Of a DNA stretch of 64,000 nucleotides, positions 3,927-32,388 are shown piece by piece (the stretch's first letter is position 1; every line of letters begins with the position of its first letter). The position numbers and the translations under genes were made by a program. The notes under the pieces are model-generated. The model searched no databases. It saw only the letters and a program-made list of their open reading frames with translations, and was not told the DNA's origin. The stretch is from NCBI GenBank assembly GCA_009772985.1, contig WOUS01000012.1, positions 46,044-110,043 of the forward strand, given 5' to 3'. The stretch comes from Anaerolineaceae bacterium. GTDB taxonomy: Bacteria > Chloroflexota > Anaerolineae > Anaerolineales > Villigracilaceae.

Positions 3927-3956
3927 CATAGAAATCCATCCCATAAGGAGTTTGCA

Positions 3957-6255: not shown

Positions 6256-6390
6256 CATGTTGTGAAGTTCGAATACCTCTGGCTGCGATCGTCGGTCTGT
6301 CCATGATTGCAGTTACACCACACATTCTCCTCTCCCGTCACCCCCGCCCCTCTCAACAACAGAGAGGCCAGGGGTGAGGAACACAAAATC

Positions 6391-7364: not shown

Positions 7365-7400
7365 ATCGAAACAGAGTACAATACTGACAGATATACTCTC

Positions 7401-7564
7401 CCCGGAGCGCCCCCCTTGACTTCCAGCCTGCCCCCACTTTCCGAACCTTCTGCACAGCTCAAAGCGAGCCTCGCGCAGATACGCCATTTCGACGGCCTCC
7501 CGCCCGAGGTCCAGGACGCCATCGCTGCGGCGGCCAGGCCGCGTCATTTCGAGGCGGGACAGGT
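7401..7564 (+). repeat. direct repeat copy B (functional 5' end of crp copy 2)
   Basis: See copy A at 4901..5064. Confidence 0.9.
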
Positions 7565-17602: not shown

Positions 17603-18748
17603 ATGAAACACCCAAGAATTATCTTCTCCCTTCTTTTGTTAACGGCACTCACGCTTTCATGCAGATTCACTGCATCCACGCCTGTTGCCACGCAGAGGAC
17701 TGACGCACCTGCGCCAACGGACGAAACCATCATCCCGGGCACACCCGCATCCGGCACCATCCCCGAAGGGGAAAGCGCCGCATACGATTGGTCCGCGCTC
17801 GACCAGACGTTGGAAAGTTTCGTGCCTGGCAAAGTGGACGGCTTGACCTTTCTGCTCGCCAAAGATGGGCAGGTGATTTACGAGAAGGCGCTTGGAAATC
17901 AAACGATGGACAGTTTCCTGCCCATTGCATCATCCACCAAGATGCCTTCGGCGGTGGTTATCCTGACGCTGGTGGAAGACGGGTTGATTGACCTGGACGA
18001 ACCCGTCGCCGCGTATTTGCAGGGACACATCAACTGGCCCGCCGACAAAGCCGCCATCACCACGCGCATGTTGCTCAATCACACCTCCGGCTTGCTCAAT
18101 CCAGGTTGTATCAGTAATCGTTGGAATGGAACATTGCAAGCCTGCGCCCAGGAAATCGCAGATGCGCCGCTGGAATTTTCGCCCGGCACACAGTTTGCTT
18201 ATGGCGGCGGGAGTTTCCAGGTGGCGGGCTACGTTGCTGAAGTGGTGAGCGGCAAATCCTGGAATGATTTATTTCAAGAACGCCTGGCAGAGCCGCTTGG
18301 GATGACGCAGTTCACGTACAGCGGCGGAACGCTGGGCAGCGAAACTAATCCGCGCATCGCCGGGGGCGCTTCATCGGATGTGGTTGATTACAATAAAATC
18401 CTCCAGATGATTTTGAACGGGGGACAATACAACGGGAAACAAATCCTCTCTCTCCAAACCGTTCAGATGATGTCCGCCAGCCAAATCTCCGGCTTGCCTC
18501 TCCTGCGCAGTCCTGGAGAAGACGATCTGCTGCTGGGATACAGTTTCGGGTTTTGGATTTCCGACCCGTCCATCCACCCCGGCAGCAACGGCCCCGAGTT
18601 GAGCGACCAGGGCGCGTTCGGCTGTACTCCCTGGGTGGACCTCGACCTCGGTTATTCCGCTATCCTGCTCATCAAAGACCGCACGCGTACCGGGACGGAA
18701 ATCTGGAATGTCATCCGTCCCATCATTATTCGGGAACTCGATCAATGA
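17603..18748 (+). CDS. beta-lactamase-family serine hydrolase lipoprotein
   Basis: The signal is MKHPRIIFSLLLLTALTLSC. The SxxK motif is ASSTKMP. It is a paralog of the N-terminal domain of the previous gene. Confidence 0.9.
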   Translation: MKHPRIIFSLLLLTALTLSCRFTASTPVATQRTDAPAPTDETIIPGTPASGTIPEGESAAYDWSALDQTLESFVPGKVDGLTFLLAKDGQVIYEKALGNQTMDSFLPIASSTKMPSAVVILTLVEDGLIDLDEPVAAYLQGHINWPADKAAITTRMLLNHTSGLLNPGCISNRWNGTLQACAQEIADAPLEFSPGTQFAYGGGSFQVAGYVAEVVSGKSWNDLFQERLAEPLGMTQFTYSGGTLGSETNPRIAGGASSDVVDYNKILQMILNGGQYNGKQILSLQTVQMMSASQISGLPLLRSPGEDDLLLGYSFGFWISDPSIHPGSNGPELSDQGAFGCTPWVDLDLGYSAILLIKDRTRTGTEIWNVIRPIIIRELDQ

Positions 18749-18880
18749 TGACTCTTTATCATTGATCATTAACGGAATGGATGGCGGTCATCGCCGCGTC
18801 TCTCGCTCCCGCCCTGCTGGTTGAGTTGTACAAACTGCGCGCCGAGCAAGGATAACGGCAAAAGGAATGTCCGAGTTGGA

Positions 18881-19045
18881 TTACCTGCCCCCGCGCGATG
18901 CCAATCCCTTCGGATCGAGCAGGATGACGGCTTTGTTATCCCGCAACCCCAGCGCTTTGGTGGGACAGGCGCGCACACACAATCCGCACCCATCGCATCG
19001 TTGCGGGTCAATCATTGGAATGGGTCTATCGTTGAAATAAGTCAT
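18881..19045 (-). pseudogene. truncated ferredoxin paralog (54 codons, one cluster motif only)
   Basis: My translation is MTYFNDRPIPMIDPQRCDGCGLCVRACPTKALGLRDNKAVILLDPKGLASRGGR*. The first 26 residues are identical to 14066..14329 and the second Cys motif is lost. It is too short for the ORF track. Confidence 0.6.
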
Positions 19046-19064
19046 TCATGCTCCAAAATAAAAC
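18967..19064. repeat. 98-bp perfect direct repeat, copy 2
   Basis: Identical to 14251..14348. Confidence 0.95.
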
Positions 19065-19722
19065 CTTTATCCAAAATCTGGATTTGATGACGCTCCACGC
19101 GGATCATTTCCTTTTCCGCCAGTTTACGCAAAGCACGGTTGAGCACGTCTGGCACAGTGCCGAGGCGGGAAGCCATTTCGGCTTGTGTAGCCCACTGCCG
19201 GCGCTGCACCGACGCGCCCTCCGCCTGTTCCAGCAAAAGCCGCGCGAGCCGCGCTTCCACCGAACGCAGGGACAGGTCCTCCACCAAGCGGATCAGGTAC
19301 TGCACCCTGCCCGCCAGTTCCCGAATCACCTGACGCGCCAGGGAGGGATGCTCCTCCAGCAGTTTCAACAGGGCTGCACGTTGAACCAACCAGATCGCCG
19401 AAGTCTCCAGCGCCGTGACGGTGGCCTGGTTGGGCGCGTCGGTGAACACGCTGAGCGCATTGAAAACATCCCCAGGTCCCAGCGTTTGCAATATTTGCTC
19501 GCGGCCATCCATGCCGATTTTAGAGACCTTCAGCCAGCCGTTTTCAAGGATGTGCATGCCCGAACAGGGTTCGCCCTCCAGCAGGATGACCTGCTCCGCG
19601 TCATAGACGCGTCGAAACGTTGCCCGTTCCACGGAAGTCAGCGCGGCGGCATCCAAACCCGAAAAATAGGATACGGCTTTCAAAATGTCGTGTGCTTTTT
19701 GGGGCAATTCGCTGTCACTCAT
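19042..19722 (-). CDS. Crp/Fnr family transcriptional regulator (copy 3)
   Basis: The barrel segment is VILLEGEPCSGMHILENGWLKVSKIGMDGREQ. It shares the LVEDLSLRSVEARLA motif with copy 2. The HTH is TQAEMASRLGTVPDVLNRALRKL. Confidence 0.9.
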   Translation of the reverse strand: MSDSELPQKAHDILKAVSYFSGLDAAALTSVERATFRRVYDAEQVILLEGEPCSGMHILENGWLKVSKIGMDGREQILQTLGPGDVFNALSVFTDAPNQATVTALETSAIWLVQRAALLKLLEEHPSLARQVIRELAGRVQYLIRLVEDLSLRSVEARLARLLLEQAEGASVQRRQWATQAEMASRLGTVPDVLNRALRKLAEKEMIRVERHQIQILDKGFILEHE

Positions 19723-19767
19723 GGAATATCCTTTCCCTGCAATCTTACCATGCGACCCCCTCCCGAC

Positions 19768-19806
19768 CCTCCCCCAAATTCCACGTTCTTTGGAATTTGG
19801 GGGAGG
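19768..19806. repeat. perfect 16-bp inverted repeat (hairpin) in divergent intergenic region
   Basis: cctcccccaaattcca cgttctt tggaatttgggggagg. No flanking T tract on either strand. Confidence 0.6.
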
Positions 19807-19853
19807 AGAATCGTTCGATGGGTTGAAAACGGCAATACTTGAAAACGCTCGCC

Positions 19854-19873
19854 TTAATGACTTAAGTCGTTAA
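19854..19873. promoter_or_regulatory. 20-bp near-perfect palindrome TTAATGACTT/AAGTCGTTAA upstream of 19919
   Basis: 9 of 10 positions are symmetric. Its centre lies about 30 nt upstream of a TATACT -10-like hexamer (19893..19898). Confidence 0.3.
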
Positions 19874-19918
19874 CTTCTCGGCAGGACGCGCATATACTGA
19901 TTTCAAAGGAGAAAAAAC

Positions 19919-20299
19919 ATGAACACAACCCTCAACAAAATCGCATCTGGTCTGGCCTTCCTCATCGGCGGCATCGCAGTGGTCGCGGGCGGGCTGGTCC
20001 TGCTGGGCCAGGAAACCGATTATCTGGTCATCAACTGGCTTCTGCTCTACAACTACACCGTCGGCGTACTGACCGTGTTCCTCACCGCCATCCTCATCTG
20101 GAGAAATAGCAAACTCGCCCTGCCGGCCGCCCTCGCGACCTTCGGCGCGCATACCGGCGTCATGCTGATCCTGCTGACCGCCTATCGCGGCGTCGTTTCG
20201 ACACACAGCCTCGAGGACATGACGGTGCGGATCGCCGCCTGGCTGATCATTCTGACCCTGATGTTTTTCCAGTTGCGGAAAAACAAGGCGGCAAAATAA
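19919..20299 (+). CDS. 4-TM membrane protein, unknown family (family A)
   Basis: AAAGGAG RBS. It is a paralog of 20995..21390 (TLNKIA..LAF(L/I)IGG...NWLLLYNY / DWLVVYNF). Confidence 0.8.
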   Translation: MNTTLNKIASGLAFLIGGIAVVAGGLVLLGQETDYLVINWLLLYNYTVGVLTVFLTAILIWRNSKLALPAALATFGAHTGVMLILLTAYRGVVSTHSLEDMTVRIAAWLIILTLMFFQLRKNKAAK

Positions 20300-20371
20300 C
20301 ACTTCTGGCGCTTGTTTTACGATTTGGAAAAGGCCGATACGATAAAAGTCGTATGCAAAAAGCAGGTCCGT

Positions 20372-20387
20372 CTGTACACTGGTACAG
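20372..20387. promoter_or_regulatory. palindrome CTGTAC-ACTG-GTACAG upstream of BON gene
   Basis: A perfect 6-4-6 palindrome 27 nt upstream of the ATG at 20414. Confidence 0.25.
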
Positions 20388-20413
20388 ATGAACCTGTTAT
20401 TTGGTAAAACGAT

Positions 20414-20692
20414 ATGTTCCATACCCCTGATCAAAACACCGATGAAAACCTGCGCGCCGCGATATTGGTCCGCTTCGCCGCCGATGACCGGACGGCCTCT
20501 GCCAGTCTGCGCGTGGGCGCGCTGAACGGGATCATCCACCTGGCAGGGACAGCCCCATCACCGGAAGCGCGCCTCGCCGCGGCCGAACTGGCCGGGAGCG
20601 TGTCGGGGGTGCGCGGCGTGGTCAACCGGATCGAAGCGCCCGGCGCGCCCCGCCCGGCGCGGACAATCAATTTGGATTTGCAAGGAAAGTAA
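20414..20692 (+). CDS. BON domain protein
   Basis: LRVGALNGIIHLAGTAPSPEARLAAAELAGSVSGVRGVVNRI fits the BON (OsmY-type) pattern. No signal peptide was seen. Confidence 0.7.
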   Translation: MFHTPDQNTDENLRAAILVRFAADDRTASASLRVGALNGIIHLAGTAPSPEARLAAAELAGSVSGVRGVVNRIEAPGAPRPARTINLDLQGK

Positions 20693-20713
20693 AAGCGAAA
20701 AGGAAATCGTGAA

Positions 20714-20992
20714 ATGACAAAATTCTGGAGTAAATGGTTCCGTAAATTCCACCGCTGGATCGCGATCCCGACCGCCCTGGCCATCCCGGCCGCGCTGGTC
20801 ATCAAACTGATCGGCGACCCCAAAATTGTGGCCGCCTGGGAAAAACTGGATAAGATCCCGTCCATTTTGATGCTGATCATGGCGCTCAGCGGATCCTATC
20901 TATACCTGCTGCCCTATATCGTCAAGGGGCAACGGAAGAAGAGAATCGCCATCTCTCAACCCGAAAACCGCCAGACACTAAAGGAGATTTGA
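20714..20992 (+). CDS. small 2-TM protein with PepSY-TM-like helix
   Basis: FRKFHRWIAIPTALAIPAAL resembles the PepSY-associated TM helix motif. 92 aa. Confidence 0.55.
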   Translation: MTKFWSKWFRKFHRWIAIPTALAIPAALVIKLIGDPKIVAAWEKLDKIPSILMLIMALSGSYLYLLPYIVKGQRKKRIAISQPENRQTLKEI

Positions 20993-20994
20993 TC

Positions 20995-21390
20995 ATGAAA
21001 ACGAAGACCACTCTGAATAAGATCGCGGCCGTCCTGGCCTTTATCATCGGCGCAATGTCTATTTTCGCCGGCGGGCAAGTCTTCCTGGGCATCCTTCCCG
21101 ATTACTACGTGATTGACTGGCTCGTGGTCTACAACTTCGTGGCCGGCATCGCCTCGGCATTCTTTGCGGCCATCGTCATCTGGAAGAACAGCCGTCTGGC
21201 CTTTCCATCCGCCATCACGATCTTCAGCCTGCACGCCGCTGTGATGGTCATCCTGCAGACAGCTTACAGTGATGTAGTTGCACCGGACAGCATCAAAGCC
21301 ATGACGGTCCGGCTTGTATTCTACACAATTATCTTAACCTTGTTATTCATTCAGCAGAAAAAAATCAAAAAACAAGGAGATATGGCATGA
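20995..21390 (+). CDS. 4-TM membrane protein (family A paralog)
   Basis: An AAGGAG RBS lies 8 nt upstream of the ATG at 20995. It is similar to 19919..20299 along its full length. Confidence 0.8.
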   Translation: MKTKTTLNKIAAVLAFIIGAMSIFAGGQVFLGILPDYYVIDWLVVYNFVAGIASAFFAAIVIWKNSRLAFPSAITIFSLHAAVMVILQTAYSDVVAPDSIKAMTVRLVFYTIILTLLFIQQKKIKKQGDMA

Positions 21391-22184
21391 AAGGCAACAA
21401 CAAATTAGGGGCTTTCCTGGCTGTCGTCGGCGTCCTGACCGGATTGCTGGTCTTCTATCTGCTTGCCAGTCAATACAACCTGGTGATTGATGCAAAGACC
21501 GTCGCGGGGCGGACGGATGAGGCTACCTCCGTAACAATCACCTATGCCGTGCTCGGGTGGATCGGGATCACGGCTGGGGCAATCTGGGCGGCGGTTCTTT
21601 ACGGCTTCCTTAACAAGGAAAAATGGGCCTGGCTCTGGGGCGCGGTGGCCGCGACGATCCAACTGCTGGTGGGCTTCTTCCCGATGATCCCCGCCATGGA
21701 CAGCCACCTGCCGACACCAACGATCGCGATTTTCATCCTGGCCGCCATCCTGTGGTTTGGGATGCTCTTCATTGGCGGTGTCGAGAAAAAGATCATAGCT
21801 TTAACCTTCATCGCAGGGCTGGCTTACGTGCTGACGTTCATTGACGGCGTCGCGCCCATTTCCAAGTACACCACCTCGCATGATGATCCCTTCTGGAACG
21901 GCATGTATGTCATGTCACAACAGGTCAGTTGGTGGGGAGCGGCGGCCTGGGCGGTATTCATCTTTGCCGTGTTCGGGAAGAAATCCTGGGCCATCCCCGT
22001 AGGTATTTTTGCGGGCGCCATGTCCATGCTGGCTGGATATCCGCTGGGGCTGCATAACGCGCTGTTCGAGGTGCATCGCTTCTCAATGTTCCTGCCTGCG
22101 CCGCTTTTCGGCACCGGATTGTTAATCTACCTGCTGCTGCCGTCCACGCGGAGAATGCTCGCAGCGTGGAATACGAAAGAATAG
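21387..22184 (+). CDS. polytopic membrane protein (family B)
   Basis: Its start overlaps the previous stop (ATGA). 265 aa. It has an internally repeated motif: KEKWAWLWGAVAATIQLLVGFFP and KKSWAIPVGIFAGAMSMLAGYP. Confidence 0.85.
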   Translation: MKGNNKLGAFLAVVGVLTGLLVFYLLASQYNLVIDAKTVAGRTDEATSVTITYAVLGWIGITAGAIWAAVLYGFLNKEKWAWLWGAVAATIQLLVGFFPMIPAMDSHLPTPTIAIFILAAILWFGMLFIGGVEKKIIALTFIAGLAYVLTFIDGVAPISKYTTSHDDPFWNGMYVMSQQVSWWGAAAWAVFIFAVFGKKSWAIPVGIFAGAMSMLAGYPLGLHNALFEVHRFSMFLPAPLFGTGLLIYLLLPSTRRMLAAWNTKE

Positions 22185-22304
22185 CGAGGCGCGCCTCAGG
22201 CCTAATTTAACAGACCGTTCTGCAGGTTATAATATTCCCACAACATTTCACGAAAAACCTGCAGAGCGATCAATAAAATCACTTTTCTTTGAAGGAGGTT
22301 CGTT

Positions 22305-23093
22305 ATGAAAGGCAATACCAAACTTGGGGCTGTCCTGGCCGTTCTCGGCATCCTGACCGGATTTCTGGTTCTCTTCCTGCTGGCAAGCACTTACATGCCA
22401 ATTGTCGAAGGGAAAATCCTGGACGGGCGGCCGGATGAAGCCATCACGGTGCGGATTGTTCATGCCCTGCTGGGCTGGGCGGGGATGGCTGCCGGGGCGC
22501 TATGGGTGGCCGTGCTTTACGGCTTCCTGACTAAAAAGGAATGGGCCTGGGGTTGGGGCGTGGTTGCCGCGACGGCGCAAATCCTGGCTGGCTTCTTCCC
22601 GATGATTCCAGCCGCCAGCATCAGGATGCCCACCCCAACAATATGGGTGTTCCTGATCGCCTTCGCCTTGTGGTTCGGGATGCTCTTCATCGGCGGCGTG
22701 AAAAAACAAATCATCGCCCTGGCGTTCGTCAGCGGACTGGCTTACGTGCTGACGTTCATTGACGGCGTCGGTTCCATCTCGCGTTATCAAACGTCTGACA
22801 ACAGTTTTGCCATTGGGATGTACGCCATGGGACAGATGATCAACTGGTTGGGCGCAATCGTCTGGGCGGTGTTCATTTACGCGCTGGTGAAAGGAAAAAC
22901 ATGGGCTTATCCCGTGGGACTTTTCGCCGCATCCATGTCCATTTTTGGCGGCTATCCCGTAGGTCTCACGGATATCTTCCAGATCGGGCGCTTCTCCATG
23001 TTCCTGGTTGCGCCGGTGATGAGCACGGGCCTGCTGGCCTACCTGCTCCTGCCGGGGACGCGCAAAATGCTCGAGAAATGGGCGGCAGGATAA
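22305..23093 (+). CDS. polytopic membrane protein (family B, tandem paralog)
   Basis: GAAGGAGG RBS. 262 aa, collinear with 21387..22184 (MKGN.KLGA.LAV.G.LTG...). Confidence 0.85.
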   Translation: MKGNTKLGAVLAVLGILTGFLVLFLLASTYMPIVEGKILDGRPDEAITVRIVHALLGWAGMAAGALWVAVLYGFLTKKEWAWGWGVVAATAQILAGFFPMIPAASIRMPTPTIWVFLIAFALWFGMLFIGGVKKQIIALAFVSGLAYVLTFIDGVGSISRYQTSDNSFAIGMYAMGQMINWLGAIVWAVFIYALVKGKTWAYPVGLFAASMSIFGGYPVGLTDIFQIGRFSMFLVAPVMSTGLLAYLLLPGTRKMLEKWAAG

Positions 23094-23116
23094 AGGTCCG
23101 GGCAAAGGCGCGGGTT

Positions 23117-23132
23117 TGTGACCTTTGTCACA
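23117..23132. promoter_or_regulatory. perfect CRP-consensus palindrome TGTGA-N6-TCACA
   Basis: The sequence is tgtgacctttgtcaca. Its centre lies about 30 nt upstream of the TGcAATAAT extended -10-like element at 23151..23159. That places it near -41.5 of a predicted start site (class II geometry). Confidence 0.55.
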
Positions 23133-23230
23133 GCAGTGGACCGGTTCATGTGCAATAATATTCTCAGTAACCCGCTGTAAACCAACGGGTTAAATTCATG
23201 GAGGTGTTCCCCTCCAAAAGGAGAATGATT

Positions 23231-23848
23231 ATGAACCTGTTCACCCTCGACAATCTGTTCCTTCTGCTCACCGGCCTGACGGCCATCTACCTGCTGTGGC
23301 GCTTCTACACTCGCTGGAGCAAGGGTAAAGCCCTTTATGATATGTACTACATGATGGGCTTCCTCGTCCTGCTGGTCTCCGGCCTGCTGCTCATCTTCCT
23401 GGGACTGGGCATCCTGGCCTCGCCGTACGTACTGACGGTGGCCTCGCTCATCCCGCTGGGCATTTCGATGGGCATCGTCGAAGAGTACTTCCCGCAGTGG
23501 AAGAAGGCTTTCAAGTGGTTTGCGCTGGTCGGCTTCCTGGCGATTGCGATATCGGCCATCTTCGGGATGGACATCGTCAAGAAGATCTCCGTCCCGCTCT
23601 TCCACGGCGTGGCCGGATTGGTCATCTTCCTCGGCCCATTCATGGCTAAGAAAGCGCCGAAAGGCTTCTGGTGGGTCGGCATCGGCGGCGTACTGATCGG
23701 CCTCGGCGGCATCGCCCTGGCGTTCATCTCGATGGGCGCGCAACTGCTCTTCTTCAGCCCGGCCTTCGTCATGCTCATCCTGACCCCGCTTCTGCTGCTC
23801 ATGACCCTGGCCTTCACTTTCGGCTTCGTCAAAGATATCAAAGGCTAA
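23231..23848 (+). CDS. polytopic membrane protein (family C)
   Basis: AAAGGAG RBS. 205 aa. It is a paralog of 27558..28166 (LLLTGL.A.Y...; (F/V)HG(V/L)AGL.IFL.P; VGIGG.LIG.GG(I/L)). Confidence 0.8.
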   Translation: MNLFTLDNLFLLLTGLTAIYLLWRFYTRWSKGKALYDMYYMMGFLVLLVSGLLLIFLGLGILASPYVLTVASLIPLGISMGIVEEYFPQWKKAFKWFALVGFLAIAISAIFGMDIVKKISVPLFHGVAGLVIFLGPFMAKKAPKGFWWVGIGGVLIGLGGIALAFISMGAQLLFFSPAFVMLILTPLLLLMTLAFTFGFVKDIKG

Positions 23849-24187
23849 TCTGCCTTCCTTTCAAGAGATCGAAAGGCCTGATATTGGACACGGATTGCTC
23901 GGATAGCACATTCCCACCGCTTTCCCTGTACTCCGTGTCCAATTTTATTGAATTGACAAAAGGTAAAGACTCTTCCTGAACTTTGTGCTATTTTATACGA
24001 AGACATTATTTGTAATAACACTCTTTGCATCGAAATGCCCGAATTTACCCTTCACCCTTCGGGTACTGCGCGGGTACGATGTCACGAATCTTCTTCGGGC
24101 AATTCGTAAAAATTCGATGCAAAAAACGGGCAAGTGCAATTACCGGTAAAGTCTAATAGATGTTTCGCTTTTTAAAAGGAGCCGCCA

Positions 24188-25663
24188 ATGCAGTTCATCA
24201 AAGACCGTTTCACTTACTTGTTCAAATCCACCAAGGGTTTGATCCTGGTGGCGATTGCCATGATCGCCCTGGAGACCGCCATCTTCGGGATGCTCTCCGG
24301 CCCGATGGCCGAACTGGGCGTGCGCGATTTCATGATCCGTTTCCTGAAAATGGATATCGTTCAGGCCGAGCGCGAAGGACGCATCATCATCCTGTACCAT
24401 TCCATCGCCATGGCCGTGGTCGCCATCGAGACCTACATGATCACCAGCTTGCTGAAGATGAAAGAGTTCTACAAAACAGCCGTGCGGGCGCTCGTCACCG
24501 TTGGCTACCTGCTGGTTATGCTCTTCGGCCTGGGCTTCGCTTACTGGGGCCACAACTGGGCTTTCCACGGGCTGTACATCTTCGGCCTGTCGCTCATCTT
24601 CTTCGCCGGCGTCCTGCTGACCATCGCGCTCTGGCCGTGGAACAAGGAATATTATCAGTCTGACAAGAACTATTCCCGCACCAAAAAAGGGGTGGATATA
24701 GAACGCACGGCCTTCTTTGCCACCGCCCTCACCACGGTCATCTCCGCCCTGTTCGGCGCCGTCCCCGGTTCGTTCTTCGGCAACGGATTCGAAGTCTTCC
24801 TGGCCGAGAACATCATCCGCCTGCCGGAAAAGACCACCATGGAATATTCGATCATCGGCCACCTGCACATCATGCTGGCCCTGATCGCGATCATGATCAC
24901 CCTCATCATCGGCCGCTGGCTGAACTTCAAGGGCATCCTGCACAAGGTCGCCATGCCGCTGATGATCCTCGGTACGATTGTCCTCAATCTCGGCGTGTGG
25001 GGCGTAGCCACACCGCTCGAACCCATCGCCCACACGATCATCTACGTCGGCGCGACTCCGTCCATGTTCGCGGCCCTGCTCCTCCTGATCTGGAGTTGGA
25101 ACAAACTCATCAAGGACGGCATCGCCCAAATCAAGAAGCCCAATCTCGGCGACCGGCTGCGCGCGCTCCTGCGCGACCCGCTCAAGTTTGGCCCCACCTG
25201 GCAAATGCTCTTCATGAACTTCACCACCAGCGGCATCGGCATCTTCATGGCCATCCGCCTGGAAGAGATTTTCCGCGTCTGGCCCGCCCGCGAAGAGCGC
25301 ATCGAACTGACCGGCCACTGGCACGTGCTTTCGGCCATCATCGCCACCATCATCCTGCTCTACTATGGCGATATGATCGGACTGAAAGGCAAATTGCGCC
25401 AGGTTTACGGCTGGGCCCTCATCATTCTCTCGGACATTGCCTTCGGCGCGGTCACCATCTTCGAGATGAAACGCCTGTTCATCACAGAGGCCGTACAACA
25501 GCCGCTGGTCAACGTCCTCATGTACCTGATGGACTTCGGCCTGGGAATGCTGCTCGTCATCCTGGCGATGCTCATGGTCTGGCGTTTGGCCGATTTGTTC
25601 AAGAAAAAAGGGCGCTGGAAGAAAGAAGTGGATCACGAACTTTCTGCGGAGGTGACAAAATGA
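24188..25663 (+). CDS. 12-TM His-rich membrane protein, candidate divergent heme-copper oxidase (subunit I-like) superfamily member
   Basis: AAAGGAG RBS. I count 12 hydrophobic helices. Its histidine motifs are YHSIAMAVV (H71), GHLHIM (H225/H227), AHTIIYVG (H282) and GHWHVLS (H377/H379). Their helix positions and spacing are reminiscent of COX1/NorB ligands. The gene itself is high confidence. The family call is a hypothesis. Confidence 0.6.
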
Positions 25664-26556
25664 AGCGCACTCTCTGGACCGTCATCCTGCTCGCTGCTCT
25701 CTTGGCCTCCTGCGCCCCCGTAGACCTCAACGCCCCCCTCCCCGCCTACAACACAGGCGTGGACCCGGACTCCTGGGCCGTCATCCCGGCTGGTTCCTTC
25801 CACTCCGGGCAGGCAGCCGATCCCGCTTTGATTGATTACGAATACGAGATCATGGTCACCAATGTGACCGTGGCGCAGTACGTGGACTTCCTCAACGAAG
25901 CCCTCGCCAACGGCACGCTCAAAGTGAGCGGCGACCAAATCGCAGGCTTCTATCCCGGCGACCCGTTCCACGGCGTCAAGCACGAATTCGAGATCGCCGC
26001 CACGGACTATATCTTCGTCCCGTTGAACGACCCGGCCTCCCGGTTCACGTTTGACGGAACCAGGTTCACGGTCAAGACCGGCTACGAAAATCACCCGATG
26101 ACGAACGTCTCCTGGTTCGGCGCGTGGGGCTACTGTACTTACTACGACTACCGGCTGCCGACCGAACTCGAATGGGAAAAAGCCGCCCGCGGCTCCGCTG
26201 ACGACCGCCCATTCCCGTGGGGCTACGACATCGCCCGCAACAACGCCAACTTCTACGCCAGCCGCGATCCGTTCGAGGACATGTCCACGTTTGGCTCGCG
26301 CACTACCCCGGTCGGCTTTTATAACGGGCAGACTTACGGGGATTACGCCACGCTCAACTCCGCCAGCCCCTACGGCCTGTACGACATGGCTGGTAACGTC
26401 TGGCAGTGGACCGGCAACGTGTACGAAGGCATGCACTACCGCTTCATGCGCGGCGGCTCGAAAGACACCTACGATATGGACCTGCGTATCTGGGTGCGCA
26501 ACAACGCCACTCCGACGTACTATAGCCCTGGGGTGGGATTCAGGTGCGCGAGATAG
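25660..26556 (+). CDS. FGE-sulfatase (SUMF1/NirV/EgtB-C) domain lipoprotein
   Basis: Its start overlaps the upstream stop (ATGA). The signal is [18 protein letters not shown]. It has the motifs [31 protein letters not shown] and [18 protein letters not shown]...GFRCAR. Confidence 0.9.
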
Positions 26557-26559
26557 TAC

Positions 26560-26624
26560 ACAGGTAGACAGGTACACAGGTATACTTGCCGCCTGAACTT
26601 GTTTACGTGTGTACCTGTTTACGT
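26560..26624 (+). repeat. dense short repeats in the FGE-ctaB intergenic spacer
   Basis: ACAGGTA occurs three times at 8-nt period (26560, 26568, 26576). TGTTTACGT occurs twice (26600, 26616). A 10-bp inverted match pairs acaggtacac (26568..26577) with gtgtacctgt (26608..26617). Confidence 0.5.
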
Positions 26625-26645
26625 ATTTATCTTTAGGAGTGCCAC

Positions 26646-27527
26646 ATGACCGCCCTCGCCGCCCAATCGAAAATCGTAAATCTGAAATCCAAAATAAGGT
26701 TGTACTGGCCGCTCACCAAATCCCTCCAGACCGGCCTCCTGCTCTCCACCGGCCTGGCGGGATACATGTCCGCGCGCTGCCCGGTGATGCACTGGTATGA
26801 CTTCCTCGGGCTGGGCGTCAGCCTGTTCCTGGCAATTGCCGGCTCGACCATCCTCAACATGTGGTACGACCGCGACATCGACTCGGTCATGAACCGCACC
26901 CACCACCGCCCGCTGGCGGATGGACGCGTTTCTCCCAACGAAGCCCTGCGCCTGGGGCTGATCCTTTCGGCTCTGGGCATCGGCATGGCCGTGGCAATGA
27001 GTCCGCTCTACGGGCTGGTGGTCTTTGCCGGACTGTTCTTCGATGTGGTCGTGTACACCATCTGGCTCAAGCGGCGCACCTGCTGGAGCATCGTCTGGGG
27101 CGGGATCTCGGGCGGCATGCCCATCCTGGCCGGGCGCGCTTTCGGTCTCGGCCACATGGACGGCATCGGCATCCTGCTGGCGCTGGCCGTCCTGTTCTGG
27201 ATCCCCACCCACATCCTGACCTTTTCGATGCGCTACTTCGACGACTACCGGGCCGCGAAAATCCCGACCTTCCCGTCCGTGTACGGGTTCCCGGTCACGC
27301 GCGCCACGATCGCCGTTTCCAGCGTCATCGCCGCTCTGAGCATCGGCGCAGCGGGAATCATGATCGGGATGGAATGGGGCTACCTGCGCCTGCTGGCCGT
27401 CCTCTCCGCCGGTCTGCTGGCGCTGGCCGTCGCCAGCGTCTTCCGTCCCTCCGAGCGCGTCAACTTTGGCCTGTTCAAGTACGCTTCCGTCTATATGCTG
27501 GCCGCAATGATCCTGATGATGTTTTAA
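26646..27527 (+). CDS. ctaB: protoheme IX farnesyltransferase (heme O synthase), UbiA superfamily
   Basis: AGGAG RBS. The motif NMWYDRDIDSVMNRTHHRPLADGRVS closely resembles the COX10/CtaB signature D-x-x-M-x-RT-x-x-RPL-x-x-G. 293 aa, about 8-9 TM helices. Confidence 0.75.
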   Translation: MTALAAQSKIVNLKSKIRLYWPLTKSLQTGLLLSTGLAGYMSARCPVMHWYDFLGLGVSLFLAIAGSTILNMWYDRDIDSVMNRTHHRPLADGRVSPNEALRLGLILSALGIGMAVAMSPLYGLVVFAGLFFDVVVYTIWLKRRTCWSIVWGGISGGMPILAGRAFGLGHMDGIGILLALAVLFWIPTHILTFSMRYFDDYRAAKIPTFPSVYGFPVTRATIAVSSVIAALSIGAAGIMIGMEWGYLRLLAVLSAGLLALAVASVFRPSERVNFGLFKYASVYMLAAMILMMF

Positions 27528-27557
27528 ATCCTCGCAAACCCGGAGAAATGATACGCC

Positions 27558-28166
27558 ATGAAAATATCCCCCCTTGATCGCATTCTCCTGCTCCTCACTG
27601 GCTTGCTGGCGGCGTATCATATTGTTGTCGGCATTGAAGGCTTCGCCAGCCTGCCCGCCATCGCTTACACCATCGCCTTTGGCGTTCTGTTGATTGCGGG
27701 ATTACTGCTCATTCTGCTCGGCTTTGATGTTTTGGACTCGCCTATCATTGTTATCGTCTCGACGATTATTCCCCTCAGCCTTGCGACGGGACTCGTCTGG
27801 CAATACCTCGCTTCATTCGGGACCTTATACCTGGGTTTCGCCATCCTGGGTTTCCTGGCCGTGACGATCACCCGCGCCCTCCCCATCAAGACCAAACTCC
27901 CGGTGCTGGTGCTGGGGATCGTACATGGCCTCGCCGGGTTGACCATCTTCCTGCTCCCCATCATCTGGGTACTGACCGGGCGCGCCGCGCCAGGCTTCGC
28001 CCTCGTGGGCATCGGCGGCGCGCTGATCGGCATCGGCGGATTGCTGCTCTCATTCCTCAAGGCTGGCAAACCGCTCCTTTCGCGCGCCGTCATCTTCCGC
28101 CTCCTGCCCGGCTTGCTGCTCCTGATGACCGCCGCATTCGTGGCCGGGTTCGCGTTTGCAAGTTGA
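27558..28166 (+). CDS. polytopic membrane protein (family C paralog)
   Basis: 202 aa, collinear with 23231..23848. Confidence 0.8.
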   Translation: MKISPLDRILLLLTGLLAAYHIVVGIEGFASLPAIAYTIAFGVLLIAGLLLILLGFDVLDSPIIVIVSTIIPLSLATGLVWQYLASFGTLYLGFAILGFLAVTITRALPIKTKLPVLVLGIVHGLAGLTIFLLPIIWVLTGRAAPGFALVGIGGALIGIGGLLLSFLKAGKPLLSRAVIFRLLPGLLLLMTAAFVAGFAFAS

Positions 28167-28264
28167 CATGTTCACACGTTTTCAAGTTGGCGCGTCTGCA
28201 AGTTGAAAAGCAACCCGCCAACCTGCAAACGTGCCAACCTTACAACGTATAAAAGGAGAATGCC

Positions 28265-28951
28265 ATGAGAAACAAGTGGTGGGCCAAACTGCTGCGCATC
28301 GTCGGCATCGTCTTCATGAGCCTGACTGCACTCTTCACATTGATGGGCGGCGCTGGCACAGCCTGTGTCGCCCTCAACCCGACCGGCTTCGGTGGGACAT
28401 TCGCCGGCATTGCCCCCTTCCAGTGGCTGTGGATTTTGTTCGTGCTGGTCGGCATCGCCGCCGGGATCATGGGTGTGCGCGCCGTCGTCCTGCTCATCAA
28501 AGGAATGAAGCACGCTTACCGTGACGCACTGATCGCCCTGCTGCTCGGCACGGTACTCAACGTCGTCCACCTGTTCGCATCGCGCGCCCTGCGCGGCTCG
28601 TCCATGCCCGTGGACGGCGTGCTGTACATGAACATCCTGACCCTGGTCATCTTCCTCCTGTTCCGCATCCCCGGCGTCTGGCAGGGCGTGGACTACGAGA
28701 AGCCTGCCGGCGGCGGGCAAACCGGCACGTACGCCGCCGCCATCGCCCTGGCCGCCTGCGGACTGCTCTCGCTGACCATCCAGTTCCTGATGGCCCCCAC
28801 CCACACCATCGGCGGGGTCAACTACGCGGACGCCTGGCACGCCACATTGACGGCTCTGGGCGTGGCCTTAATCCTGGCCGGCCTCGTGACCGCACTCCAC
28901 GCCCGCCGGATCACGGTCCGGCGCGCCGCGCTGCCCGAAGCCGCAAAGTGA
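28265..28951 (+). CDS. polytopic membrane protein, unknown function
   Basis: AAAGGAG RBS. 228 aa, about 6 TM helices. It is the last gene before a terminator. Confidence 0.75.
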   Translation: MRNKWWAKLLRIVGIVFMSLTALFTLMGGAGTACVALNPTGFGGTFAGIAPFQWLWILFVLVGIAAGIMGVRAVVLLIKGMKHAYRDALIALLLGTVLNVVHLFASRALRGSSMPVDGVLYMNILTLVIFLLFRIPGVWQGVDYEKPAGGGQTGTYAAAIALAACGLLSLTIQFLMAPTHTIGGVNYADAWHATLTALGVALILAGLVTALHARRITVRRAALPEAAK

Positions 28952-28970
28952 TCTCAAACGAACCGCATCG

Positions 28971-28999
28971 AAACTCCCCGTCCCGGCGGGGAGTTTTTC
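28971..28999 (+). terminator. rho-independent terminator
   Basis: aaactccccg tcccgg cggggagttt followed by tttcgtt. Confidence 0.6.
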
Positions 29000-29069
29000 G
29001 TTGTTGACATTTTACAAAATGGCGCGACAATACAATCGCAATCACTTTTGGAGGGGCGGGAGGATTCTT

Positions 29070-31331
29070 ATGAAACGCTTTCGCTTATCTTACGGGGTGG
29101 TTCTTGTCTCAGTAATTTCGTCTGTAGTGATCCTCTTCGGGGGCATCTTTGCATATCCTGCCCAGGCTGCCGGGACGCCAAAAACATCTCAACCGCTGGC
29201 TCCGTCGCCGCAAGAGGCCGATCTGTCGAGCGTTACGCTGACTCTGGCCGATCTCCCGCCGGGGTTCGAGGTAATGCCAGACAATCTGCTCGCCAATTTT
29301 CGCAGCCTGCTCGAACAGGTCAATTCTGCCGGGGGTTTCTCGAACGCGGAGATGGTGAACCTGGTCGGGTATCAAAGAATAGATTACCCATACTCCGAGT
29401 TTGTGGTCAGTTTCCTGTTAACTCCCCTGAATACCCTCCAGATCTTTCAATTCGACCAGCAACTGTCTGACCCGGACAAGTTCCTCCGAACAACCGAAAA
29501 TGCACTATCCGGTTCCGGGTTCAGCCAATTCGAGTTGATCCCTGGCTCAACCGACATCGGAGCGGCTTCGATTGGCTTTACCTGCAAAGTGGATGCGGGG
29601 GCGATCACGATCGAGGAAGATATTCTCTCGTGGCGCCGGAAGAATGTTAATGCACAAATCGCCATTTACTATTCGGAGGGATACCAGCCCACCGCAGATA
29701 TTCTGACCCTGGGCCGCACCCTGGATACCCGGCTGGAGGCCGCCGTCGGGCCGGAAACCGAGGCTGTTACCGGCGGGCCTTTCCGCCTCGCCGGGCCATA
29801 CGTTCCCGAAATTACCACCTACATCCCCACCCCGCTCGACCTGTCGCCGAAGCCGTCCGTCATCGGAACGAACCTGCTCCTGGCCGCCCTGATGATGCTC
29901 CCATTCGCCGTGGCGGCCGAGTTCTTCACCCGCACGCTGGCCGAAAACGAGAAGGCCCTGAAGCGCAGGATCCGCCCGATGAACTGGTTCGCCCGCCTGC
30001 AGGAACGGATGGCCGGATTCTTCAAGACACGTTTCGGCGACGTGCTGAAAGTTTTCGTTGTAATGATTTTCTACGGCCTGGTCTTCTCCCTGCTCGATAA
30101 GACCTGGAATCCGTTCAGCCTGAAAGGGCTGATCCTGTTCGGCTCCATGACCATCGCCTACGGTCTGGTGGGGGTTGCCGACGACATCCTGCAATGGCGC
30201 CGCATCCGCCGCTGGGGACTGGCCGCCGAACTCAAGGTGCGGCCCGCCAACATACTGCTCGCCGCGCTGTCCACCGCCACCAGCCGGATACTTTCCCTCG
30301 TCCCCGGCCTGATGTTCGGCACGCCCGAAGCCCTCGAAACAGACGACAAACAATTCGATGCGTCGAAACGCAACACCCTGCTAAAAATCAGCGGTTTCAC
30401 CTTCGCCATCATCGGCCTGACCGTCTGGCTGCCGACAGTCGTCACCAATTTGCTCCAACGCATCAACCTGCTTCCATCCGTTTTGAACAACCTGCTGGGC
30501 GGGTTTGAATCCATTCTGCTGGTCATCTTCGCTGTCGCCCTCGAAAACCTGTTCGTCCAGATGCTCGGCTTTCCCGGCAGTTTCGGCCATTCGCTGAAAC
30601 GCCGCAGCCGCTGGCTGTGGATCGGCCTGCTCGTACTCGTGGCCTTCGTGTTCTACCACACACTCATCAATCCTCGCGGCGGACTGGCCTCCGCCATCCA
30701 GGAGGGCAACGTCATCCTGTTCCTGAGCGTGGCCGCCGCCTTCGTGGTCTTCACCTTCGGGATGCGGCTCTTCTTTAGGATTCGGAACCGGCGCGCCGAG
30801 AAGCGCGGGACCGTCTCGCCGCTTCCCGCGACGCCAGAACCTGCCGCGCCCGCTCCCACCGCGCCCTCCGCCGGACCCGCTCCCGCGAAGCCGGTCCCGG
30901 CCGCGCCCGCTCCGGCTGCTCCTCCGCCGGCAACCGTCGCCGTGCCGCCCGTCACCGCCGTGCAAAAGGCCCCGGTCACCGTCCCGCTGGCGGGAGAAAA
31001 GCAGTGTCCCGTCTGCGGCGAAAAGATCAAGGCGGAAGCGAAGTTGTGCCGCCACTGCCGGGCGACCTTCACCGTGACGCGCAAGGGCTACTGCCTGACC
31101 GACCACGATGTGGTCGAGGTGAACGAGGCGGGCAAATGCGTCCGCTGCGGCGGCGAGCCGGCCGACCTGCACGTGGAGAGCCGCCTGCTGCAAGCGCCCG
31201 CCGTCCGGCCGGTGAAACCCGCCCCGCCCGCACCCGCCCCCGCGCCCGGCGCCAAACTCTGCCCCTCCTGCGGGCAGACAATCAAGGCCGAGGCAAAGAT
31301 CTGCCGCTTCTGCCGCACCATGCTCGGATGA
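29070..31331 (+). CDS. large membrane protein: secreted N-domain, about 8 TM helices, Pro/Ala-rich linker, three C-terminal zinc-ribbon motifs
   Basis: GGGAGG RBS with a start at MKRFRLSYGVVLVSV. The zinc ribbons are CPVCGEKIKAEAKLCRHCRATF, CLTDHD...CVRCGG and CPSCGQTIKAEAKICRFCRTML. Confidence 0.8.
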   Translation: MKRFRLSYGVVLVSVISSVVILFGGIFAYPAQAAGTPKTSQPLAPSPQEADLSSVTLTLADLPPGFEVMPDNLLANFRSLLEQVNSAGGFSNAEMVNLVGYQRIDYPYSEFVVSFLLTPLNTLQIFQFDQQLSDPDKFLRTTENALSGSGFSQFELIPGSTDIGAASIGFTCKVDAGAITIEEDILSWRRKNVNAQIAIYYSEGYQPTADILTLGRTLDTRLEAAVGPETEAVTGGPFRLAGPYVPEITTYIPTPLDLSPKPSVIGTNLLLAALMMLPFAVAAEFFTRTLAENEKALKRRIRPMNWFARLQERMAGFFKTRFGDVLKVFVVMIFYGLVFSLLDKTWNPFSLKGLILFGSMTIAYGLVGVADDILQWRRIRRWGLAAELKVRPANILLAALSTATSRILSLVPGLMFGTPEALETDDKQFDASKRNTLLKISGFTFAIIGLTVWLPTVVTNLLQRINLLPSVLNNLLGGFESILLVIFAVALENLFVQMLGFPGSFGHSLKRRSRWLWIGLLVLVAFVFYHTLINPRGGLASAIQEGNVILFLSVAAAFVVFTFGMRLFFRIRNRRAEKRGTVSPLPATPEPAAPAPTAPSAGPAPAKPVPAAPAPAAPPPATVAVPPVTAVQKAPVTVPLAGEKQCPVCGEKIKAEAKLCRHCRATFTVTRKGYCLTDHDVVEVNEAGKCVRCGGEPADLHVESRLLQAPAVRPVKPAPPAPAPAPGAKLCPSCGQTIKAEAKICRFCRTMLG

Positions 31332-31344
31332 GAAAGGAACAACC

Positions 31345-32388
31345 ATGAACCCGACAACCCAAAAATGCCCGATGTGCGCCGAGGAAATTCCCGCCAAGGC
31401 AACCGCCTGCCCCTTCTGCGGGACGCGGCTGGTTGACGAAACACCCGCACCGCCCGCTCCCGCCCCGGCCCGGACCCCAGTCCCGCCGCGGCCCGGGCCC
31501 GCGCAAGTTGCTCCGCCGCCGCCCGTCCGCAGGAAAAATCAATGGATCTGGTGGCTCGTCGGCGGCGGGATAGCAGGCCTCTGTTTGTGTGCCGCGCTGG
31601 CCGTGGGCGGCGTCCTGCTCTACCAGAGCGGACTGCTGTTCCCGGCCTCCCCCCTCGCGGAGCCGACCTTCTCCCCGCCGGAGGAAGCCACGGTCCAGCC
31701 TGAACCGACCGCCCCCACGCGCACAAAGACCCCGGTCCCCACACCGACCGTCAACGCCCCGGCGCAGGCCTTCGGCGACCCGATCCTGGCCGCCATCGAG
31801 GGAAGGCCGCCGCATATCACGGACGACTTCAGCCGGGACCGCGGCTGGTACGGATTTGACGGCGTCACCCAGTCGGCAGACATGGTCCTGGTTCACGATG
31901 GAGTCATCCAGGCTGCCGGCGATACGCAGCGGGTTTTCACACACATGGTCATGACATGGCCTTACGACGAATTGGACAACTACGCTGTAATGGTCGAGGC
32001 AGTCTTCCTCGCCAGCGGCGGCAGCGCCCGCGACCGCGAGATCGGCATATGCTGGTGGCCGGGGGACGAACTGGGAGAGCGGTTCTTATTGAGGGAAAGC
32101 GGGGTTTTCGAGGGGGGAACCTGCCACGACAGGGAATGCCCGGCGTTCATCTTCGGCCACATGGCCCCCATTCCGGCTGGCGAGACGGTCTCCCTGACCC
32201 TGATCCACTTGCGCGGCGAATCGGTTGTGTACGTTAACGGCGTTCCGCTTGCTTACCACAAACTTGCCATCACCGACTACTCGTCCGGTTTCTCCCTGTG
32301 CCCGCATACGTACGACGGAAAGACATCGGATATTGTTTACGACAACCTGAAAGTCTGGAACCTCGATCTGGTCCCCGGCCTGCCCTGA
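31345..32388 (+). CDS. zinc-ribbon / single-TM / extracytoplasmic jelly-roll-like domain protein
   Basis: The N-terminal zinc ribbon is CPMCAEEIPAKATACPFCGTRL. It has a Pro-rich linker and a TM helix WIWWLVGGGIAGLCLCAALAVGGVLL. The C-terminal domain ends ..DIVYDNLKVWNL, which looks LamG/DUF1080-like (weak). Confidence 0.75.
   Translation: MNPTTQKCPMCAEEIPAKATACPFCGTRLVDETPAPPAPAPARTPVPPRPGPAQVAPPPPVRRKNQWIWWLVGGGIAGLCLCAALAVGGVLLYQSGLLFPASPLAEPTFSPPEEATVQPEPTAPTRTKTPVPTPTVNAPAQAFGDPILAAIEGRPPHITDDFSRDRGWYGFDGVTQSADMVLVHDGVIQAAGDTQRVFTHMVMTWPYDELDNYAVMVEAVFLASGGSARDREIGICWWPGDELGERFLLRESGVFEGGTCHDRECPAFIFGHMAPIPAGETVSLTLIHLRGESVVYVNGVPLAYHKLAITDYSSGFSLCPHTYDGKTSDIVYDNLKVWNLDLVPGLP

Follow-up and report, generated by a model that had tools for sequence, protein, structure and literature searches.

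A predicted oxidase-fold membrane protein linked to a heme O synthase and an FGE-fold lipoprotein in Anaerolineales and more distant lineages

This analysis concerns a gene cluster in a stretch of 64,000 nucleotides (hereafter, the window) from contig WOUS01000012.1 of an Anaerolineaceae bacterium (assembly GCA_009772985.1, forward-strand positions 46,044 to 110,043), and in particular the membrane protein encoded by its 24188 gene, designated here as HCOL. The protein has the predicted fold of heme-copper oxidase (HCO) subunit I and part of its histidine pattern, it consists of three sequence-detectable repeats of four transmembrane (TM) helices, and its gene is linked in many genomes to those of a heme O synthase, an FGE-fold lipoprotein and several membrane proteins. 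The reading that we favor, though tentatively, is that HCOL is the catalytic-type core of an autonomous, deeply divergent HCO-fold hemoprotein complex, which would use heme O, be fed by menaquinol, reduce O2, nitric oxide (NO) or a related oxidant, and be regulated by a Crp-family protein.

Non-canonical homologues of oxidase subunit I are known as a category; the HCOL family itself has no entry in Pfam or NCBIfam, and all annotations found for it read 'hypothetical'. HCOL gave no match in Pfam, NCBIfam or the PDB sequences, whether as a single sequence or as a profile of 17 diverse homologues; the COX1, NnrS, CopD and COX15-CtaA Pfam models were not matched, and DUF423 appeared only at E = 0.29 in one of the 17 members. 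In a set of 5.8 billion proteins, 3341 matches were found, the best 120 of which are 83–93% identical and are named only 'hypothetical protein' of Anaerolineales or Chloroflexota. There are 309 representatives in a library clustered at 50%, and relatives are encoded in at least 574 GTDB species genomes.

An AlphaFold2 model of HCOL, built from an alignment of homologues down to 23% identity, has 12 TM helices, a predicted local distance difference test score (pLDDT) of 88.5 and a predicted template modeling score (pTM) of 0.90. Among the top 50 Foldseek matches in the PDB, the full-length ones are subunit I of HCOs only, from the A, B and C families (2gsm, 7cub, 3s3b, 3mk7 and others; TM-score 0.47–0.59, probability 1.0); the other matches are G-protein-coupled receptors (GPCRs) or pyrophosphatases with low TM-scores, and no heme A synthase structure is found in these 50. 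Across the 17 homologues, which reach down to 23% identity, H71, H127, E207, H225, H227, H282, R363 and H377 are invariant, and W378, H379 and E370 are nearly invariant. The histidines are placed in TM2 (H71), at the start of TM4 (H127), in the HxH of TM6 (H225/H227), at the start of TM8 (H282) and in the HxH of TM10 (H377/H379), and the buried ones are all in even-numbered helices, 8–12 residues away from the outer end, like those of oxidases.

HCOL was also aligned by hhalign with eight A-family subunit I sequences from E. coli and plasmids, for residue mapping only and not as proof of homology. The alignment is weak (probability 9.5%, P = 0.0034) yet colinear over 356 columns; reversed-sequence controls aligned 17–37 columns with P of ~0.5. 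It pairs H227 with the CuB ligand H284, H282 with H333, H377 with H419 and H379 with H421, and the TM10 motif reads GHWHVLS in HCOL and AHFHYVLS in the oxidases. H71 lies at the TM2 depth expected of a low-spin heme ligand, and the aligner is offset there by about two helical turns. The first-pass annotation of this DNA had termed the protein 'HCO-like'; the predicted structure supports this for the fold and for part of the ligand pattern, and the profile searches do not extend it to family membership.

Oxidase structures are known to have pseudo-threefold symmetry. Comparison of HCOL with itself by hhalign revealed a triplication of a 4-TM unit that is detectable in the sequence: residues 160–318 align with 320–478 (probability 96.6%, E = 5e-10), placing H225/H227 on H377/H379 and R211 on R363, and residues 1–155 align with 320–478 (probability 84%, E = 7e-6), placing H71 on H379, and with 160–318, placing H127 on H282. 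The triplication is repeated in an independent clade ~30% identical to the window HCOL (E = 1.6e-7 and 9e-6). Reversed and shuffled controls gave E = 0.017–0.93, and the same test on canonical subunit I returned nothing (E = 0.03–0.25 over 7–21 columns). Pei et al. (2014) reportedly proposed distant oxidase-homologue families derived from 4-TM 'evolutionary units'; hhalign of the HCOL repeats against YgdD/DUF423 and CopD sequence gave no signal (P 0.02 or worse, with thin profiles).

HCOs and NO reductases (NORs) perform most biological O2 and NO reduction, and their origin, with either O2 or NO reduction first, is an old open question. With its oxidase fold and a triplication still present in the sequence, HCOL could serve as a concrete outgroup for that question. 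A further proposal, which we regard as unlikely, is that HCOL represents a near-symmetric line, related to the ancestor of all HCOs and NORs, that has survived as a triplicated 4-helix hemoprotein with repeats still visible in the sequence. Today, it would form the core of respiratory reductases of a new class, which depend on quinol, use heme O and have a non-CuB active site, and in which 7-TM proteins and an FGE-fold lipoprotein replace subunits II and III.

The genes and elements of the cluster and of its upstream region in the window are as follows.

19042..19722, minus strand: Crp/Fnr-family regulator, 226 aa, with PF00027 and PF13545 and a single Cys
19919-20299, plus strand: 126-aa membrane protein (open reading frame (ORF) call)
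20414-20692, plus strand: BON-like protein (ORF; the L002 orthologue carries PF04972)
20714-20992, plus strand: 92-aa membrane protein (ORF call)
20989-21390, plus strand: 133-aa paralogue of the 126-aa membrane protein (ORF call)
21387..22184, plus strand: tm265, a polytopic membrane protein of no known family, 62% identical to tm262
22305..23093, plus strand: tm262, tandem paralogue of tm265 (sequence comparison)
23117..23132, no strand: perfect Crp-type palindrome TGTGACCTTTGTCACA, the sole perfect TGTGA-N6-TCACA in 64 kb
23149..23159, plus strand: TGTGCAATAAT, an extended -10-like element (TGcAATAAT), from the sequence
23231..23848, plus strand: famC1, 205 aa, 7-TM, with one invariant His; ribosome-binding site AAGGAG 7 nt upstream
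23879..23947, plus strand: hairpin with U-rich tail in the famC1-HCOL spacer (dG -31.1 kcal/mol, z = -6.3)
24024..24123, plus strand: second structured element, ~65 nt upstream of the HCOL start codon, with nested inverted repeats (dG -36 kcal/mol, z = -3.2)
24188..25663, plus strand: HCOL, 491 aa, 12-TM, predicted HCO subunit I fold, three 4-TM repeats
25660..26556, plus strand: FGE-fold lipoprotein (PF03781), 298 aa, lipobox LLASC
26646..27527, plus strand: predicted CtaB/CyoE-type heme O synthase (protoheme IX farnesyltransferase), 293 aa, by TIGR01473
27558..28166, plus strand: famC2, 202 aa, 7-TM paralogue of famC1, with invariant H123
28265..28951, plus strand: tm228, membrane protein of 228 aa, with invariant C34, H102 and H180
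28970..28997, plus strand: intrinsic terminator-like hairpin with T-run (terminator scan)

As had been described before, six genes, all on the plus strand, lie between the TGTGA-N6-TCACA box (23117) and the terminator (28970), which has a 12-bp G+C-rich stem and is the top terminator-like site in the scan. The reported overlap of the HCOL and FGE-like genes was found as well, with the HCOL stop codon and the FGE-like start codon sharing ATGA at 25660-25663 and GGAGGTG upstream, and famC1 and famC2 are indeed paralogues (38% identity over 122 aa, E = 5e-11). Of the compact operon that was proposed, the six plus-strand genes hold, and a single six-gene transcript is uncertain, since the spacer upstream of HCOL contains a hairpin with a U-rich tail. 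That the module is self-contained is doubtful: tm265 paralogues and other small membrane proteins are encoded upstream of the box, and the conserved module reaches at least to 21387 and probably to 19919. The four small genes at 19919..21390 are found again ahead of the cluster in some of the orthologous loci; their orthologues in L002 carry the PF04972 BON and PF05425 CopD domains. A Pfam scan of ~50 ORFs of the window found no COX2, cytochrome c, COX15/CtaA or SCO1, in agreement with the earlier statement on CoxB-type, cytochrome c, CtaA and Sco genes, and no multicopper or cupredoxin family or nirK. In tblastn searches, CyoA, CyoB and CyoC had no match in the window, and CyoA (subunit II) had none in any fetched locus.

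Conservation of the cluster was assessed in a species-level set from one order, Anaerolineales, comprising the best 80 of the at least 574 genomes, in which HCOL is 76–85% identical. The gene order in most of these loci is tm265, famC1, HCOL, FGE-like, CtaB, famC2 and tm228, tm265 being upstream of HCOL in most of the 80, and a Crp-family gene is found near the cluster in most orthologous loci. Many of the 80 loci are on contigs that end early; at a query coverage of at least 70%, orthologues were counted in 75 of them for the FGE-like protein, 67 for CtaB, 65 for famC2, 56 for famC1 and 55 for tm228. Within the cluster, conservation is highest for HCOL, with a median identity of 80.7% over the 80 species (famC1, 76%; FGE-like, 71%; CtaB, 69%; famC2, 66%; tm228, 54%). 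A second, partial copy of famC1 and HCOL located just upstream of the complete cluster in a Chloroflexota metagenome-assembled genome (MAG; L032, 7189-9134) may be a tandem duplication or a pseudogene.

Since these 80 best matches all belong to one order, the synteny is partly inherited, and the genes might be neighbors by shared ancestry only, forming no functional unit and with ctaB serving nothing but ordinary oxidases. We hold this to be very improbable: flanking genes vary among the 80 loci, while the cluster remains intact; the same partners are found again, at 30–57% identity, in otherwise unrelated settings, a diderm lineage and a small complete genome among them; the gene fusion and the 4-bp overlaps described below indicate co-translation; and the regulatory box is conserved.

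Among more distant homologues, L184 (57% identity) has the order Crp, HCOL, FGE (4-bp overlap) and UbiA, and L100 (46% identity) has Crp, HCOL, UbiA (4-bp overlap) and a tm265 homologue; in both, the UbiA gene is counted as a linked CtaB. In L004-L006 (52% identity), which represent a diderm lineage, HCOL and FGE are fused; the fourth gene upstream is CtaB-like, and a DUF423 protein and a NapH-type membrane ferredoxin are encoded downstream. The fusion is a natural protein of 785 aa (P0123, L004 8001-10358), composed of HCOL, an extra TM helix and an FGE-like domain. In L004, a Toluene_X outer-membrane protein is encoded nearby, and a gene of the DUF423/YgdD family, reportedly a 4-TM relative of oxidases (Pei et al., 2014), is located two genes downstream of the fusion. 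L008 (32% identity) has famC, HCOL and a CtaB-like gene; with 204.4 bits in L008 and 211.1 bits in L004, these CtaB-like proteins are borderline for TIGR01473 (cut-off 210.3). In a complete genome of 1.63 Mb (L186, CP062310.1, 7417-9353), HCOL follows a famC homologue (hhalign 99.4%) after a gap of 14 bp, and no CtaB-like gene is found within 8 kb. This pair adjoins BREX/MmeI-type defense genes, and the organism would provide an experimental handle if cultured.

The gene famC also adjoins HCOL in L105, L142, L145, L153 and L171, and tm265-like homologues accompany HCOL and CtaB in L100, L106, L121 and L181. A divergent clade was sampled in 80 metagenome loci, 44 of them with enough downstream sequence; CtaB follows HCOL in 16 of these 44, and famC, tm265-like and FGE-like genes are found in subsets of the loci. 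Of these genes, famC and HCOL seem to form the oldest pairing; CtaB and tm265 accompany them frequently, and the FGE-like gene is lineage-specific. On one of the two points by which the first-pass annotation let its module stand or fall, the linkage of HCOL homologues to FGE-like, ctaB-like and family-C genes, conservation was found in most of the 80 species and again in distant lineages, with one HCOL-FGE fusion, and the module therefore survives it. In the searchable literature, no description was found of the cluster, of a triplication visible in the sequence, of the linkage to heme O synthase, of the FGE-fold partner or fusion, or of the membrane partners.

The 293-aa CtaB protein scores 224.6 bits on TIGR01473 (cut-off 210.3) and shares 34% identity with E. 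coli CyoE over 169 aa; by these sequence criteria, its identification as a heme O synthase is confirmed, and farnesylation of protoheme is predicted. The lipoprotein matches FGE-sulfatase (PF03781; 121.9 bits, residues 38-298), and its best solved relative is SUMF2/pFGE (1y4j), an inactive paralogue. Its only cysteines are C18 of the lipobox, C159 and C296, and the Cu(I)-binding Cys pair of FGE is absent. A role as a copper enzyme was therefore rejected, and the earlier argument from FGE being a copper enzyme is not transferable. The analogy with NirV that had been drawn concerns the fold only, as there is no nirK in the window. Based on the topology of the fusion, 12 TM helices plus one, the FGE-like domain is placed outside the cell membrane, and the lipoprotein probably caps the outer face, in a structural or a ligand-binding role. 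The natural fusion would give a widespread and mostly uncharacterized family of FGE-fold lipoproteins a defined partner. The AlphaFold model of famC, built from database homologues (pLDDT 90.9), is a 7-TM bundle with one invariant His. Foldseek returned only generic 7-TM bundles for it (rhodopsins and GPCRs, TM-score ~0.45-0.5), and a relationship to oxidase subunit III was dropped, as no similarity was found in this search. No obvious invariant ligand residues were seen in tm265.

According to the reading favored here, a bis-His heme would be bound between TM2 (H71) and TM10 (H379) and a second heme by H377 of TM10, as in oxidase subunit I, and a non-canonical metal or distal site, formed by H227 of TM6 and H282 at the start of TM8 and possibly also by H225, H127 or E207, would replace the CuB triad. 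Farnesylated heme O for the second heme would be supplied by the adjoining CtaB-type enzyme. HCOL would assemble with the 7-TM family-C proteins and with the tm265 and tm228 membrane proteins, and, in Anaerolineales, the FGE-fold lipoprotein would join on the outer face at the subunit II site. Because no cupredoxin or cytochrome c subunit is encoded, menaquinol is the most likely electron source, and the complex would likely reduce a small oxidant, for example O2 or NO. Transcription would start from a class-II-type promoter driven by a Crp/Fnr-family regulator other than Fe-S FNR. Of this picture, the predicted fold, the pattern of histidines, the triplication, the linkage of the genes, the fusion and the conserved box are observations of this analysis; the binding of heme and metal, the electron donor, the substrate and assembly into a complex are deductions. 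The respiratory context seen elsewhere fits a redox role of this kind, with the NapH-type ferredoxin located by the fusion and with NDH-2 and a DUF438-hemerythrin-PAS protein encoded in L139 and L154.

Several observations weigh against a catalytic role of HCOL. No sequence profile puts HCOL in COX1, NnrS or any other family, and the E-values of its Foldseek matches are only ~0.02. The TM7 His-His pair and the cross-linked Tyr of canonical oxidases are absent, and, by symmetry, H377 and H227 could form a second bis-His heme, in which case an open catalytic site would be missing. The cluster encodes no electron-donor subunit, the FGE-like protein lacks the Cu(I)-binding cysteine pair, with none in the C-terminal segment where FGE carries it, and CtaB follows HCOL in only 16 of the 44 divergent-clade loci. 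Moreover, a genuine COX1 gene stands beside HCOL in six divergent loci (L139, L143, L154, L148, L127 and L163), a context that fits a redox role and, equally, an accessory or heme-handling factor of a canonical oxidase. Finally, Anaerolineae MAGs commonly encode canonical oxidases, often as coxBACD (PMC11748557), and these would also need the ctaB of the cluster.

The COX1 that adjoins HCOL scores 220.9 bits on PF00115 and has all six His ligands, without the tyrosine of the HPEVY motif. L139 (1943-9332) and L154 (12-6508) share the order NDH-2, a small protein of 140-168 aa, COX1, HCOL and DUF438-hemerythrin-PAS, which in L139 is followed by a DUF166 gene; the order in L127 is COX1, HCOL and CtaB. 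In L139 and L154, COX1 has a large insertion after the TM6 His, and this atypical protein may be a member of an unusual oxidase or NOR family.

From these loci, HCOL may be read as a factor for heme O handling or biogenesis, either an alternative heme-O-modifying enzyme that functionally resembles CtaA/Cox15 or a heme insertase or chaperone, which would act together with CtaB to supply canonical oxidases encoded elsewhere. We consider this unlikely, though it deserves to be taken seriously. The tight pairing of HCOL with CtaB mimics ctaA-ctaB. In the HCOL repeat unit, one His is found in the second helix and another at the start of the fourth, ~55 residues later, a spacing that presumably recalls the 4-helix halves of heme A synthase. 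The neighborhoods, COX1-HCOL-CtaB in L127 and COX1-HCOL in L139, L143, L154 and L148, agree with such a role, as does the frequent coxBACD of Anaerolineae MAGs (PMC11748557). However, none of the 80 Anaerolineales loci has a canonical gene for oxidase subunit I or II at a distance of 10 kb or less, and a CyoC-like (subunit III) match in L074 is the only oxidase-related one near the cluster. The fold as a whole matches oxidase subunit I, with heme A synthase missing from the Foldseek top 50, and the COX15-CtaA Pfam signal is 0/17 members. Furthermore, conservation of ~81% and four or five dedicated membrane partners would be unusual in an assembly factor, and some homologues (divergent loci, L186) have neither CtaB nor COX1 nearby.

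In the window, TGTGA-N6-TCACA occurs once in perfect form and three times with one mismatch, and shuffled sequences contain on average 1.35 boxes at one-mismatch stringency. Boxes with 0-1 mismatches are found at the equivalent position in most of 73 orthologous loci, with 56 grouped at 700-1000 nt ahead of HCOL, i.e., just before famC1, and in loci without family C the Crp box is directly upstream of HCOL. The Crp/Fnr-type control box claimed previously is thus phylogenetically conserved at the same position. Other loci have a second Crp-like palindrome, TGTGCAATAATTCACA, in place of TGTGCAATAAT, and a spacing of 32-33 bp between the box and the TGTGCAATAATTCACA-like element recurs in more than 25 loci. 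If TGcAATAAT (23151-23159) in TGTGCAATAAT is read as an extended -10 element, the box is centered ~41.5 nt upstream of the predicted transcription start, which would correspond to class-II promoter geometry. The divergent gene at 19042-19722 encodes a regulator with one Cys, which is therefore not an FNR-type [4Fe-4S] sensor.

The famC1-HCOL spacer (23849-24187) is unusually long (339 bp) and AT-rich, with two strong hairpins, and the orthologous spacers of 38 loci are structured as well (median z = -4.1). No Rfam match was found across the cluster region 18500-29500, which includes the structured spacer. The hairpin at 23879-23947 may attenuate or partly terminate transcription or mark a processing site, and the spacer could serve as a stabilizing element, attenuator or processing site that sets the ratio of famC1 to HCOL expression.

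Two more Crp-family genes are present in the window at 3165-3869 (minus strand) and 7416-8129 (plus strand). Between them are encoded a distant tm265 paralogue (3957-4799, E = 5e-6), with TGTGCTATAAATCACA 31 bp upstream of its start, and a NapH/MauN-type Fer4_5 membrane ferredoxin (6537-7364), which resembles the ferredoxin adjoining the HCOL-FGE fusion of L004 (E = 6e-11). The genes at 3165-8129 may belong to the same regulon as the HCOL cluster, and the ferredoxin may be an electron-input partner. An ORF fragment (4816-5097) nearly duplicates the N-terminus of the Crp-family protein of 7416-8129 (…SLPPFSEPSARLAATLARVRHFDGLPPEAQDAIAAAARSRHFEAGQV…; compared with 7416-7560), the antisense ORFs being duplicated too, and looks like a local duplication or a pseudogene remnant. 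The protein encoded at 5110-6168 was considered as a relative of the 341-aa neighbor in L004 and was rejected by comparison.

The regulator and the gene neighborhoods also bear on a non-catalytic role, in which HCOL would act in the manner of NnrS, as a sensor, a protective protein or a handler of metals. As a His-lined membrane protein binding heme, Cu or Fe, it would buffer NO, O2 or metal stress or move a metal ion, and the Crp-family regulator would switch it on under stress. NnrS is a non-canonical 12-TM oxidase homologue with a stress-related role. NO- or heme-sensing regulators of the Dnr/NnrR type likewise lack the FNR cysteines, as does the regulator of the cluster. CopD-family and BON genes in the extended cluster of L002, DUF438-hemerythrin-PAS neighbors in the divergent clade, and the non-canonical HCO-homologue families of Pei et al. 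(2014), as cited in PMC4602095 and PMC11218638, are further points in its favor. Such a role nevertheless appears rather unlikely: HCOL shows no profile similarity to NnrS, CopD or DUF423, the linkage to heme O synthase, NDH-2 and NapH-like proteins suggests electron transfer over transport, and the invariant histidines are all at one membrane depth and outline no trans-membrane ion path. The remaining probability falls to an explanation other than those considered here.

The HCOL family is found in abundant Chloroflexota of sediment, groundwater and wastewater and is missed by standard annotation. If active, HCOL could change how the respiratory or NO/O2-handling capacity of "fermentative" Chloroflexota is read from metagenomes. 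In a MAG survey, 'cytochrome o ubiquinol oxidase' comprised the complex-IV genes that recruited most DNA reads in Anaerolineae (PMC11748557). That annotation module includes cyoE/ctaB, so that such calls could be inflated by the HCOL-linked ctaB, and MAG pipelines may, speculatively, score it as evidence of 'cytochrome o oxidase'.

Two other parts of the window were noted. Directly past the terminator (29001-32388), there is a 776-aa membrane protein with FGLLP motif, Pro/Ala-rich linkers and two zinc ribbons, and a second zinc-ribbon protein (31345-32388); a zinc-ribbon protein is also encoded downstream of the cluster in L001. The first part of the window (1-4000) has a G+C content of 0.37-0.49, compared with ~0.60 elsewhere, and contains a DNA methylase (267-1436) and several ORFs without a family match; this stretch, at the edge of the window, may consist of foreign or mobile DNA.

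In comparison with known systems, the pairing of a heme O synthase gene with that of a polytopic, His-bearing protein of repeated 4-TM units is shared with ctaA-ctaB. HCOL differs from CtaA in having 12 TM helices instead of 8 and an oxidase-type fold, with no COX15-CtaA profile match. The FGE-like lipoprotein shares the FGE-sulfatase fold and an extracytoplasmic location with NirV, pFGE/SUMF2 and PorK/GldK, and, like NirV-type accessory proteins, it is tied to a membrane or redox system and not to sulfatases. Unlike true FGE, it has no Cu(I)-binding Cys pair, and, unlike NirV, it has no nirK nearby and is translationally coupled, and in one lineage fused, to a 12-TM protein of oxidase fold.

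Pei, Li, Kinch and Grishin (Protein Sci, 2014) are said to have described distant oxidase homologues with one or three 4-TM units and conserved histidines, NnrS and YgdD/DUF423 being examples. The concept of 4-TM units is the same for HCOL, and the genes adjoining those families include some for hemerythrin-like proteins and for proteins related to denitrification. No match was found between HCOL and the Pfam models of families associated with that work (NnrS, PF05940; DUF423, PF04241; CopD, PF05425), and no description was found in the literature of non-canonical HCO homologues linked to CtaB, an FGE-fold lipoprotein, family C or tm265.

The closest comparison is with subunit I of HCOs and NORs, such as that of E. 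coli cytochrome bo3. HCOL shares with it the predicted 12-TM fold, the buried His of TM2, the HxH of TM10 and a TM6 His that aligns with the CuB ligand H284, and, as in cyoABCDE, where cyoE encodes heme O synthase, the gene for this enzyme is part of the HCOL operon. If quinol-dependent, HCOL would resemble quinol oxidases in needing no cytochrome c or CuA donor. In contrast to HCO subunit I, it has no detectable profile similarity, no TM7 His-His pair and no cross-linked Tyr, and it has additional invariant histidines in the TM6 HxH (H225), TM4 (H127) and TM8 (H282). The place of subunit II and III homologues, which are absent, would be taken by partners of other kinds, namely the family-C, tm265 and tm228 proteins and the FGE-fold lipoprotein. 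Whereas no repeats can be recognized in the sequence of canonical subunit I, HCOL retains three 4-TM repeats that are recognizable at E = 5e-10.

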